Below are positions 49,228-51,588 of a stretch of 64,000 nucleotides of DNA, piece by piece. The position numbers and the translations under genes were made by a program. Below the pieces are notes generated by a model. It was not told where the DNA came from, ran no database searches, and saw nothing but the letters and a program-made list of their open reading frames with translations. Positions within the stretch are counted from its first letter, which is position 1, and every line of letters begins with the position of its first letter. Source of the stretch: Escherichia coli (GTDB lineage Bacteria; Pseudomonadota; Gammaproteobacteria; Enterobacterales; Enterobacteriaceae); NCBI RefSeq assembly GCF_003334765.1, contig NZ_QOWT01000023.1; one strand, given 5' to 3'.

Positions 49228-51588
49228 ATGGTTCATAAATCTGACAGTGATGAATTAGCTGCATTGAGGGCAGAAAATGCCCGTCTGGTCTCATTACTTG
49301 AAGCTCATGGGATTGAATGGCGACGTAAACCGCCGATCTCTGTGCAGCGCGTTTCTGTATTATCCACCAATGAGAAGGTTGCATTATTTCGTCGGTTGTT
49401 TCGCGGGCGTGATGATGTATGGGCACTTAGATGGGAAAGTAAAACCAGCGGCAAATCAGGGTACTCTCCTGCCTGCGCTAACGAATGGCAGGCGAGAATA
49501 TGCGGTAAGCCCCGGATAAAATGTGGGGACTGCGCTCACCGTCAGTTGATTCCTGTATCTGATCTCGTCATCTACTACCATCTGGCAGGTACCCATACTG
49601 CCGGGATGTATCCGTTGCTGGAAGATGATTCCTGTTATTTTCTGGCTGTTGATTTTGATGAAGCTGAATGGCAGAAGGATGCATCCGCATTCATGCGATC
49701 CTGTGATGAGCTGGGTGTACCCGCTGCGCTGGAAATATCCCGTTCACGTCAGGGAGCGCATGTCTGGATATTTTTTGCTTCACGAGTTTCGGCCCGCGAA
49801 GCTCGCCGTCTGGGGACTGCTATTATTAGTTATACGTGTAATCGAACTCGACAGCTGCGATTGGGTTCTTATGACCGATTATTTCCTAATCAGGATACGA
49901 TGCCAAAAGGGGGATTTGGTAATCTCATAGCATTACCTCTGCAAAAAAGACCGCGTGAATCGGGGGGAAGTGTTTTTGTTGATATGAATTTCCAGCCTTA
50001 TTCTGATCAATGGGCTTTTCTTGCATCGGTGATCCCGATGAATGTGCAGAATATTGAACCGACGATATTACGGGCTACAGGAAGTATCCATCCTCTGGAT
50101 GTGAACTTTATCAACGAAGAAGACCTGGGTACGCCATGGGAAGGGAAAAAATCATCAGGAAACAGACTGAATATTTCTATTGCAGAACCGCTGAAAATCA
50201 CGCTGGCAAACCAGATCTATTTCGAAAAAGCGCAATTACCTCAGGTGCTGATTAACCGACTTATTCGGCTGGCAGCATTTCCGAACCCTGAGTTTTATAA
50301 GGCTCAGGCAATGCGTATGTCAGTCTGGAATAAGCCCCGTGTTATAGGTTGTGCGGAGAATTACCCGCAACACATTGCGTTGCCCCAGGGATGTCTGGAC
50401 AGCGTATTATCTTTCCTTAGGGACAACAATATTGCTGCAGAATTAATCGATAAACGATTTGTCGGGACGGAATGTAATGCCGTTTTTATGGGAAACCTCA
50501 GAGCGGAGCAGGAAGAGGCCGTTTCGGCATTACTCCGTTATGACACTGGTGTGCTTTGTGCGCCAACGGCTTTTGGTAAGACAGTTACCGCAGCGGCAGT
50601 GATTGCCAGACGGAAAGTGAATACACTGATACTGGTACACCGGACTGAATTGCTGAAGCAGTGGCAGGAGCGTCTCGAGGTGTTTCTGCAGGTTGGTGAC
50701 AATATTGGTATTATCGGGGGAGGTAAACATAAACCCTGTGGCAATATTGATATTGCGGTGGTGCAGTCCATATCCAGACACGGAGAAGTTGAACCTCTGG
50801 TCAGGAATTATGGGCAAATCATTGTGGATGAGTGCCATCATATTGGCGCGGTTTCATTTTCTGCGATTCTGAAGGAAACGAATGCCAGATATCTGCTTGG
50901 CCTGACGGCAACACCAATCCGACGGGATGGTCTGCATCCCATTATTTTTATGTACTGTGGTGCCATTCGCCATACAGCGGTCCGCCCGAAGGAAAGCCCA
51001 CATAATCTGGAGGTACTGACCCGTTCCCGTTTTACATCTGGTCATTTACCATCGGATGCGAGAATCCAGGATATTTTCAGAGAAATTGCTCTGGATCATG
51101 ACAGAACGGTGGCGATAGCTGAAGAAGCCATGAAAGCTTTCGGGCAGGGGCGAAAAGTTCTGGTACTGACTGAACGTACAGATCATCTGGATGAGATAGC
51201 ATCAGTGATGAATTCACTGAAATTGTCCCCCTTTATTCTCCATGGACGACTATCGAAAAAAAAGCGTGCGATGCTGATATCCGGGCTGAATGCTCTTCCT
51301 CCTGATTCTCCCCGTATTTTGTTGTCAACAGGCAGACTTATTGGTGAGGGATTTGACCACCCTCCGCTGGATACGCTGATTCTTGCCATGCCTGTGTCAT
51401 GGAAAGGGACATTACAGCAGTATGCGGGACGTCTACACAGAGAGCATACCGGTAAAAGCGATGTCAGGATCATTGATTTTGTGGATACCGCGTATCCAGT
51501 GCTGCTCAGAATGTGGGATAAACGCCAGCGGGGTTATAAGGCGATGGGGTACAGGATTGTGGCTGATGGTGAAGGGCTTTCATTTTAA
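49228..51588 (+). CDS. Fusion protein: N-terminal archaeo-eukaryotic-primase (AEP)-like domain plus C-terminal SF2 DEAH-type helicase (start uncertain, 49150-49228)
   Basis: N-terminal region FLAVDFDEAEW (DxD/E-type motif) and QGAHVWIFF (H motif); C-terminal helicase motifs I APTAFGKT, II DECHH, III LTATP, VI QQYAGRLHR. Confidence 0.7.
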   Translation: MVHKSDSDELAALRAENARLVSLLEAHGIEWRRKPPISVQRVSVLSTNEKVALFRRLFRGRDDVWALRWESKTSGKSGYSPACANEWQARICGKPRIKCGDCAHRQLIPVSDLVIYYHLAGTHTAGMYPLLEDDSCYFLAVDFDEAEWQKDASAFMRSCDELGVPAALEISRSRQGAHVWIFFASRVSAREARRLGTAIISYTCNRTRQLRLGSYDRLFPNQDTMPKGGFGNLIALPLQKRPRESGGSVFVDMNFQPYSDQWAFLASVIPMNVQNIEPTILRATGSIHPLDVNFINEEDLGTPWEGKKSSGNRLNISIAEPLKITLANQIYFEKAQLPQVLINRLIRLAAFPNPEFYKAQAMRMSVWNKPRVIGCAENYPQHIALPQGCLDSVLSFLRDNNIAAELIDKRFVGTECNAVFMGNLRAEQEEAVSALLRYDTGVLCAPTAFGKTVTAAAVIARRKVNTLILVHRTELLKQWQERLEVFLQVGDNIGIIGGGKHKPCGNIDIAVVQSISRHGEVEPLVRNYGQIIVDECHHIGAVSFSAILKETNARYLLGLTATPIRRDGLHPIIFMYCGAIRHTAVRPKESPHNLEVLTRSRFTSGHLPSDARIQDIFREIALDHDRTVAIAEEAMKAFGQGRKVLVLTERTDHLDEIASVMNSLKLSPFILHGRLSKKKRAMLISGLNALPPDSPRILLSTGRLIGEGFDHPPLDTLILAMPVSWKGTLQQYAGRLHREHTGKSDVRIIDFVDTAYPVLLRMWDKRQRGYKAMGYRIVADGEGLSF

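Follow-up and report, generated by a model that had tools for sequence, protein, structure and literature searches.

A primase-polymerase–helicase fusion gene carried as cargo on an Escherichia coli integrative island: a candidate stand-alone conflict enzyme

What is the role of a large protein in which a primase-polymerase (Prim-Pol) is joined to a helicase, when its gene lies on an integrative island of Escherichia coli? The question is raised by the gene at positions 49228..51588 (plus strand) of a 64,000-nucleotide stretch of the E. coli chromosome (NCBI RefSeq assembly GCF_003334765.1, contig NZ_QOWT01000023.1), which as a whole is called the window. A preliminary description had seen an archaeo-eukaryotic primase (AEP)-like domain fused to a superfamily 2 (SF2) DEAH helicase and proposed two roles, the replicative primase-helicase of the island or a conflict effector acting with a convergent phosphoribosyltransferase (PRTase) gene. 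The gene was found to be intact. Its sequence relationships and surroundings suggest, at slightly better than an even chance, a stand-alone enzyme of nucleic-acid conflict or defence, which would most likely be directed against phage or mobile elements.

Domain architecture of the fusion protein

The gene, the open reading frame (ORF) containing it and its domains are located as follows, with the evidence in brackets.

49228..51588, plus strand: Prim-Pol (AEP)–XPB-like SF2 helicase fusion gene (ORF, Pfam, PADLOC, homologues, model)
49150..51588, plus strand: maximal ORF with GTG start, 812 amino acids (aa) (ORF list)
49237..49305, plus strand: N-terminal long helix, coiled-coil-like, residues 4-26 (model secondary structure; alignment columns 1-60)
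49372..50058, plus strand: AEP/Prim-Pol catalytic domain, residues 49-277 (Pfam, alignment, CAPP structures 7nqd/7nqf)
50185..50490, plus strand: conserved alpha/beta linker domain, residues ~320-420, NPEFY...PR...LPRGC (model, Foldseek, conserved columns)
50494..51441, plus strand: SF2 helicase core, RecA1 and RecA2 (Pfam ResIII, DEAD and Helicase_C; invariant columns; PDB and fold matches)

The start at 49228 is an ATG inside the maximal ORF and results in a product of 786 aa. This start is shared with RefSeq and all homologues; WP_000233440-type proteins are 786 aa long, and the N-termini in a conservation alignment of the window protein and 36 representatives (37 sequences, 37-60% identity) begin at the same ATG. 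Because RefSeq and the homologues start here, 786 aa was taken as the real product, and the 812 aa given in the preliminary description apply to the maximal ORF only. In the following, Pfam domain coordinates are in the 812-aa numbering and residue numbers in the 786-aa numbering. A whole-protein homology search, which returned near-identical E. coli sequences alone, yielded an E. coli cluster of 2231 sequences with 99% identity and 100% length coverage relative to the window protein. For the context analyses, a species-level genome scan and a representative search were used instead. Compared with the copy in an undisrupted locus, 760 of 786 residues are identical.

The assignment of the protein to the AEP-TOTE family, as an AEP/Prim-Pol fused to an SF2 DEAH helicase and similar to the helicase type of the CAPP_A Prim-Pols (CAPP, CRISPR-associated Prim-Pol), is regarded as practically certain. 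The Pfam family AEP-TOTE (PF22548) covers residues 75-303 with model positions 1-228 of 230 (score 328.9, E 2.3e-98), and DNA_primase_S was matched at E 5e-8. In the C-terminal half, ResIII was located at residues 449-591 (E 5e-24) and Helicase_C at residues 665-764 (E 1.5e-7), and DEAD was matched at E 1e-10. As profile matches these are far above chance, and they confirmed both halves of the fusion. All motifs on which the fusion had originally been recognised (FLAVDFDEAEW, GAHVWIFF, AFGKT, DECHH, TATP and QxxGRxxR) are present in the translation.

The AEP domain contains the motifs I (DxD), II (sxH) and III (acidic) of the superfamily and aligns motif for motif to the solved CAPP domains. 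In the 37-sequence alignment, D142/D144 of motif I, H178 of motif II and D216/D223 of the motif III region are invariant. The closest solved AEP in a PDB sequence search was the Marinitoga CAPP Prim-Pol domain (7nqd/7nqf, E 2e-27), with which the window protein shares the DxD, G-x-H-x-W-I-F-F and FP-x-Q...GG-x-GNLI-x-PL motifs. It differs from this domain by an insert with four cysteines that follows the N-terminal LF-x-GR-x-DV motif and precedes the catalytic core, a stretch which is unaligned to the solved MsCAPP domain. The four cysteines (C83, C92, C99 and C102) are nearly invariant in the alignment and probably form a zinc-binding cluster.

The only strong match in PADLOC, which had been proposed as a check for a defence system, was to the model of a Cas-associated accessory PrimPol (PDLC01465, E 1e-143, full profile); the other matches were to generic helicase-domain models, and the AEP domain weakly matches RT_UG10 models. 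Sub-threshold matches in NCBIfam were found to the CRISPR-associated PrimPol type A1 (PrimPol_Msp, 6.5e-24), RadD and XPB. The PADLOC and PDB matches, together with PrimPol_Msp below its cutoff, place the sequence in the CAPP_A Prim-Pol clade. Within CAPP_A, TPR, RT (reverse transcriptase) and Helicase types have been described, and the non-CRISPR homologues, which mostly combine Prim-Pol and helicase and are 'typically found in MGEs' (mobile genetic elements), were set apart (Zabrady et al. 2021, Nat Commun 12:3690, PMC8211822).

A true CAPP would act as an accessory of CRISPR adaptation and synthesize primers during spacer acquisition. Such a role would fit the best PADLOC match, and CAPPs are the closest relatives that have been solved and assayed. 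A repeat of the corresponding kind was also found 7.4 kb upstream of the gene:

41718-41745, plus strand: single CRISPR direct repeat (Rfam CRISPR-DR4, 50.1 bits, E 1.4e-9), between clpA and the integrase

However, this repeat is chromosomal and lies outside the island. It is presumably the known orphan type I-F repeat of the E. coli clpA-infA locus and is unrelated to the Prim-Pol gene. Neither the island nor any of the sampled related loci showed a cas gene, and the window gene lacks the linkage to cas1/cas2 or to a CRISPR array by which CAPPs are recognised. Considering also the separation of the non-CRISPR homologues cited above, a function in CRISPR adaptation is given next to no credence.

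In the helicase half, the RecA1 motifs were identified as Walker A (G450-K451-T452), DECHH (534-538) and TATP (561-564), and the RecA2 motifs as EGFD (707-710) and QxxGRxxR (731-738, in QQYAGRLHR). Thus, motifs I, II (DExH), III and VI and two RecA-like lobes of an SF2 helicase are present. GKT 450-452 and D534-E535-C536 are invariant in the alignment, and H537, H538 and Q731/G734/R735/R738 of motif VI are kept in at least 90% of the aligned sequences. The best PDB sequence matches were archaeal XPBII (E ~8e-35) and Rad25 (4.5e-30), followed by T4 UvsW and RadD.

In an AlphaFold2 model built on the 37-sequence alignment (pLDDT 88.5, pTM 0.84), a long helix at the N-terminus precedes the AEP domain, which a flexible linker (residues 294-311) joins to a small alpha/beta domain and the two RecA lobes. 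The top Foldseek matches were XPB in TFIIH, UvsW and XPB-Bax1, and the alignments to XPB span ~500-700 columns, which is longer than the helicase core alone. By sequence and model, the helicase half is of the XPB/Rad25-like SF2 type. At the position of the N-terminal helix, the relatives carry segments of similar character and differing sequence (alignment columns 1-60); in the model, this coiled-coil-like helix appears as a possible oligomerisation element. The alignment shows that the Prim-Pol active site and the helicase motifs are held under strong purifying selection. Given the conserved active sites, the confident model and the XPB and CAPP matches, both enzymatic halves are predicted to be active.

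Distribution and genomic neighbourhoods of the family

The N-terminal 401 residues match 8,824 clusters at 50% identity, 1,466 of these at E<=1e-30. Between beta- and gammaproteobacterial species, an identity of 65-72% is kept (species-level genome scan). In E. coli, the gene occurs in 673 of 5426 genomes (~12% of complete genomes), including the O-islands of enterohaemorrhagic E. coli (EHEC). Family members are typically ~780-830 aa in length, and a second group comprises ~930-1,100 aa. The longer members that were sampled (P0247; P0268, L101 2038-4914; P0316, L099 4915-8235) have a PLDc_2 nuclease domain at the C-terminus; in P0316, a GNAT acetyltransferase domain is added at the N-terminus, resulting in the order GNAT-AEP-helicase-PLD. 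Searches with the N-terminal half detected the family on 185 of 72,556 plasmids, with sizes of 83 kb to 1.4 Mb among the matches listed, and as one partial match in 50,697 phage records.

The analysis of gene neighbours covered 80 loci, taken from different species, in which the helicase homologue has an identity of 65-100%. To classify the neighbour families, their representatives were combined into one mixed 'alignment' and scanned with Pfam, and many of the surveyed contigs are short; an NCBIfam scan of the neighbour families in the 80 loci gave mostly no matches. Recurrent neighbours were RhuM, AbiEii/AbiEi, HipA, Phd, ParE, RelE, MqsA-like, YhcG, HsdR/HsdS and YgjP. A toxin-antitoxin (TA) or type I restriction-modification (RM) neighbour was found within 4 kb in 44 of the 80 loci. 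The representative P0224 is located amid CcdAB, a Zeta toxin and an AAA_21 ATPase. There is no universal partner gene across the 80 loci, and the integrase cluster of the window is shared by three of them only. The survey thus shows that the Prim-Pol-helicase gene travels solo, without a fixed partner and mostly amid toxin-antitoxin and restriction genes.

These contexts bear on a function in DNA repair or damage tolerance, in which a repriming or fork-remodelling enzyme would aid the host or the island in restart or lesion processing. The nearest characterised relatives of the helicase, namely XPB, Rad25, RadD and T4 UvsW, are repair and recombination motors, and repair roles are documented for Prim-Pols (review PMC10345425). 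In addition, an E. coli PrimPol-RT defence protein is reported to take part in an oxidative DNA-damage response as well (PMC12439943). Some relatives are found in non-defence contexts, one of them adjoining SbcCD-like genes. However, a conserved linkage to repair operons was not found in the surveyed loci, the distribution among the E. coli genomes is patchy and island-borne, and the placement among TA and restriction genes as well as the PLD-nuclease fusions are typical of conflict genes rather than of core repair. A repair function is therefore considered unlikely, although it is the least unlikely of the alternatives to a conflict role.

The most common neighbour in the survey is an all-alpha ORF of ~181 aa, which was found in 21 of the 80 loci (L007-L060; for example L026 3841-4392) in beta- and gammaproteobacteria and which is absent in E. 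coli. Its stop overlaps the start of the helicase gene by 4 nt, which suggests translational coupling of the two genes, and in its clade the product could be an accessory or regulatory subunit. A weak Pfam match to DUF6155 (E 0.022) was obtained for this ORF, and PADLOC and NCBIfam gave no match. The 187-aa YfjJ-like gene located upstream of the fusion gene in the window was considered as its counterpart, which was rejected, as a tblastn search with the YfjJ-like protein left all 80 loci without a match.

In seven related loci (L033, L039, L052, L054, L069, L073 and L080), another ORF of ~386 aa (MSEYQYYEF...) was observed. It is usually located within ~100 nt of the helicase gene, downstream in some loci and upstream in L073, and NCBIfam gave no match for it.

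The island and the truncated ShosTA neighbour

In the window, the integrase of the island follows clpA, whose end lies at 41505. The following features were located between the integrase and the fusion gene.

42023-43240, plus strand: tyrosine integrase (ORF, NCBIfam integrase domain)
43410-44939, minus strand: DUF3987/YfjI-type P4-alpha-like putative helicase (PHROG; annotation of loci L002 and L085)
44911-45216, minus strand: AlpA-type regulator (PHROG; annotation of L002 and L085)
45272-47134, plus strand: 620-aa orphan ORF, low local GC content of 37-40%, flanked by alpA and the AT-rich gap
47.1-48.5 kb, no strand: AT-rich non-coding gap of 1.4 kb, between the 620-aa ORF and the 187-aa gene
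47171-47217, no strand: perfect 22-nt inverted repeat with a 3-nt loop, directly 3' of the 620-aa ORF
47507-47552, no strand: 23-nt tandem direct repeat (74% identity) in the AT-rich gap
48510..49073, plus strand: 187-aa gene, YagK/YfjJ-like ('inovirus-type Gp2', possible Rep-like; RefSeq names)

The gene directly upstream of the fusion had been described as a HUH Rep-like gene. RefSeq names it YagK/YfjJ or 'inovirus-type Gp2', and its Pfam matches are weak only (REP_ORF2-G2P 0.0028, YagK_YfjJ_C 0.048). A YfjJ-type gene without the helicase downstream is present in K-12 CP4-57 and in two other E. coli genomes (L097 and L098). In K-12 CP4-57, the slot after yfjJ is occupied by the AbpAB anti-phage genes and RnlAB, and in L097 and L098 the equivalent slot contains a group II intron or unrelated cargo. 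The backbone of integrase, AlpA, YfjI and YfjJ hence exists in E. coli without the Prim-Pol-helicase gene. The 187-aa gene belongs to this backbone and is no specific partner of the helicase, and the Prim-Pol-helicase gene is carried as cargo by a CP4-57/P4-like integrative island, within its variable region. ARAGORN found no tRNA, and thus no tRNA attachment site, in 41000-64000.

AEP-helicase fusions are the replication proteins of some plasmids and phages, such as ORF904 of pRN1, and the fusion gene of the window lies directly downstream of the Rep-like gene and the AT-rich stretch. It had been proposed on this basis that the fusion protein, together with the YfjJ/Gp2-like Rep and the AT-rich region, is the replicative primase-helicase of the island and would initiate replication of the excised element; the occurrence of the non-CRISPR homologues in mobile elements (PMC8211822) is consistent with this. 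The reading is, however, improbable, since the backbone exists without the gene, the island already has a P4-alpha-like DUF3987 protein of its own, the family is virtually absent from phages and rare on plasmids, the helicase is of the SF2 type and the AT-rich gap contains no iteron array. The relatives inside type I RM and TA clusters, of which few share the integrase cluster, also speak against it. The gene is therefore neither a regular member of phage or plasmid modules nor constant in the island backbone, as would be expected of a mobile-element replicase. With its monomeric-type XPB-like SF2 motor, the protein further differs from P4 alpha and pRN1 ORF904, which have hexameric helicases of the SF3, SF4 or MCM type. 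XPB-like SF2 motors are not replicative helicases.

Apart from the one 23-nt tandem pair and the one hairpin, the AT-rich gap holds scattered short repeats that are likely due to chance, and no Rfam family was detected in 47.1-48.5 kb. The hairpin probably is the terminator of the 620-aa ORF. Neither the PADLOC models nor NCBIfam nor PHROGs gave a match for this ORF. Near the integrase, other E. coli islands of this backbone carry differing large hypothetical genes, and the 620-aa ORF may be a further variable cargo gene. PADLOC also gave no matches for the 187-aa and DUF3987 ORFs, and AlpA was borderline (E 0.006).

On the opposite side, the fusion gene faces the remains of the convergent PRTase gene, which is followed by an insertion sequence (IS).

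51607..51823, minus strand: shosT remnant, last ~72 of 208 codons (translation, PADLOC ShosT, colinearity with L085)
51824..52935, minus strand: degenerate IS66-family (ISEc22-like) element (sequence, ORFs, IS66/ISEc22 ends in many genomes, annotation of L002)
51861-52208, minus strand: tnpC C-terminal fragment of the IS66-family element (ORFs)
52238-52501, minus strand: tnpB fragment (ORFs)
52498-52935, minus strand: tnpA (ORFs)

The minus-strand translation of the remnant contains ...VIFDDVLTAGSHF... and, including the C-terminal end, reads ...CRPWIVIFDDVLTAGSHFKAMK...GAQII*. The window is colinear with the intact locus L085 up to 51823 (96.7% identity). An IS66-family end with the terminal GTAAGCG begins at 51824 and cuts shosT, so that the truncation of the convergent PRTase gene by IS66, as first described, is real; tnpC of the element is internally deleted. 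The window is missing shosA and the 5' two thirds of shosT.

The PRTase was identified through its longer copies. A shosT reconstructed from the EHEC copy matched PADLOC ShosT at E 1e-33 and retrieved an intact 208-aa E. coli protein from many contigs. This intact PRTase matches ShosT at 1.5e-50, and its 297-aa DprA-like neighbour matches ShosA at 4e-103. The intact E. coli order is AlpA, DUF3987, the 187-aa gene and the AEP-helicase gene, followed in convergent orientation by the PRTase (208 aa) and DprA-like (297 aa) genes. The latter two overlap by 4 nt (L085-L093; the intact pair was seen in L085-L089), and judging from the sequence, translation of ShosT in the intact E. coli loci is coupled to that of ShosA. 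The intact relatives thus contain the combination that defines ShosTA, a ShosT-like PRTase with an adjacent DprA-like ShosA, whereas the window lacks shosA, which was lost to IS66. Since only the last ~72 codons of shosT survive, ShosTA is dead in the window. The shosT copy of EHEC strain 95JB1 (L001 12190-12650) is longer but likewise dead: an in-frame stop (CRP*IVIFDD) interrupts it, and an IS30 fragment truncates it at the N-terminus. As the EHEC and window copies are broken differently, shosTA decayed independently in different lineages while the helicase remained intact.

Could helicase and ShosTA nevertheless form one three-gene system, comparable to the RecQ-like RqlH/PsyrT and its DprA/PRTase-type partner? 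The helicase and ShosA-ShosT genes are immediate convergent neighbours in many E. coli genomes, with ~18 bp between the stops. The ShosA-like protein also matches PsyrA at 8e-27, and a precedent for the pairing of a helicase with DprA/PRTase is reported in PMC4670107. Several observations speak against such a system. Due to the convergent orientation, the helicase gene and shosTA are not one operon. In Salmonella, a DprA-like and PRTase pair of the same architecture is found in unrelated context and without the AEP-helicase. ShosTA alone is a validated anti-T7 toxin-antitoxin defence system and suffices for defence experimentally (PMC11961720). The helicase gene is intact where shosTA has been destroyed, in the window as well as in EHEC.

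The neighbourhood survey, which the preliminary description had suggested for a consistent linkage to a PRTase gene, also argued against one. A tblastn search with the PRTase against the 80 related loci gave one match, and 79 of 80 loci have no PRTase within 6 kb. The lone positive locus (L004, JAIJJM010000369.1, from a 'Collinsella sp.' metagenome-assembled genome) is a 3.2-kb contig with a 100% identical helicase and a shosT fragment, and is almost certainly an E. coli contig that was mis-binned into the Collinsella genome. In comparison with PsyrTA/RqlHI, the window helicase is XPB-like and not RecQ-like, the genes are convergent and each is found without the other.

Because ShosTA stands alone in Salmonella and nearly all helicase loci are without a PRTase, the PRTase is considered a neighbour from a separate system with its own ShosA, and the Prim-Pol-helicase is very probably independent of it. 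Correspondingly, a joint system with ShosTA is rated as highly improbable, and an effector role in partnership with the PRTase is regarded as refuted. The apparent link is an artefact of two defence-type cargos side by side, one of which was destroyed by the IS66 element. For annotation this means that, where a short PRTase ORF lies beside the Prim-Pol-helicase gene, as in many E. coli genomes, it is a decayed shosT. The likeness to ShosTA (PMC11961720, PMC12961424) therefore concerns the neighbouring fragment only, of which the 3' end is kept, and ShosTA is no part of the helicase function.

Further downstream, a run of degraded insertion sequences was observed in 51824-58274 of the window, followed by a large ORF.

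52968-54074, no strand given: IS3-family ORFs (degraded IS run)
54891-55493, no strand given: IS200-like transposase (degraded IS run)
56314-56586, no strand given: IS1 InsA-like ORF (degraded IS run)
57103-58274, no strand given: second IS3-family pair (degraded IS run)
58826-62917, plus strand: 1363-aa ORF with C-terminal autotransporter beta-barrel (TIGR01414, E 1e-73; domain match)

The 1363-aa ORF is a virulence-type autotransporter in the same island as the Prim-Pol-helicase gene.

Relation to known systems and proposed function

The RefSeq name of the protein, 'TOTE conflict system archaeo-eukaryotic primase domain-containing protein', agrees with the Pfam assignment, as the AEP domain fits the AEP-TOTE model end to end. 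TOTE stands for TPR, OB, TBP, Effector (Aravind, Iyer and Burroughs 2022, cited in bioRxiv 10.1101/2025.09.15.676423). Neither a TPR-OB/cold-shock gene nor a TBP gene was found in the window flanks, the intact E. coli loci, the recurrent neighbour families of the 80 related loci (Pfam scan) or six further contexts. The solo gene therefore differs from the TOTE anatomy as given by the citing paper, and a TOTE system should not be inferred from the RefSeq label. The preliminary description, which suggested an annotation as component of PRTase-associated conflict systems, is accordingly right with respect to the conflict-system name, but the PRTase is no component of TOTE.

The helicase resembles XPB/Rad25 (TFIIH, archaeal XPB-Bax1), T4 UvsW and E. 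coli RadD in its SF2 core with a ResIII-type RecA1, and differs from XPB/Rad25 in that it is fused to a primase; a Bax1-like nuclease partner was not seen. UG10/PPRT and DRT7 likewise contain a Prim-Pol domain within one large defence protein, and anti-phage roles are reported for them. Unlike these, the window protein has no reverse transcriptase domain, and the partner domain of its Prim-Pol is an XPB-like helicase.

The window copy shows no departure from the databases and from PMC8211822, so that both its architecture and its family are already on record. The family is catalogued as Pfam PF22548, by its RefSeq name, by a PADLOC model and as CAPP-Helicase-like (PMC8211822), and its function is a prediction.

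The conflict role is the best-supported reading of the data. It is backed by the toxin-antitoxin and restriction neighbours, the PLD fusions, the solo distribution and the near-absence from phages, and the intact E. coli loci beside ShosTA and the use of the CP4-57 slot for AbpAB and RnlAB count for it. The idea of a conflict-system effector in the preliminary description hence remains plausible without the PRTase partnership. Several points weigh against this role. The partner genes implied by the Pfam and RefSeq names are absent from the surveyed loci, and PADLOC-DB v2 lists the protein as CRISPR-associated accessory PrimPol only, under no named defence system. The count of 44 of 80 loci with a defence-type neighbour carries no background control. 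Housekeeping-like contexts also occur, for example a sugar ABC transporter with radical SAM (L099/L100) and SelA (P0247). In the literature searched, an experiment on any helicase-fused member was not found, and the family is unmentioned in recent E. coli defence-discovery preprints. Finally, the mechanism of a translocase that feeds a primase is derived from domain chemistry only.

According to this mechanism, which in its specifics is put forward as doubtful, the ATP-driven XPB-like translocase would open or track along foreign or replicating DNA and thereby expose single strands. On these, the fused Prim-Pol would start and extend DNA primers, presumably with a 5' purine ribonucleotide followed by dNTPs, in analogy to the solved and assayed CAPPs. 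The illegitimate priming and synthesis on the invader would block its replication. In the PLD-bearing paralogues, synthesis may in addition mark the invader for nuclease attack and so add cleavage.

The gene is common and conserved and is found in a tractable host, while the function of the helicase fusion is a prediction. If it is a defence gene, it would represent a primase-based, reverse-transcriptase-independent use of nucleic-acid synthesis in immunity. It is tentatively proposed, with less confidence than the conflict role as such, that the protein could be a self-contained single-protein immune system of an unvalidated kind, whose antiviral act would be DNA synthesis itself and not nuclease or NADase activity. 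If this holds true, the protein would be the helicase-coupled counterpart of the synthesis-based DRT systems, and the ~8,800 sequence clusters would constitute one of the larger unvalidated defence families, which would be directly testable in E. coli.

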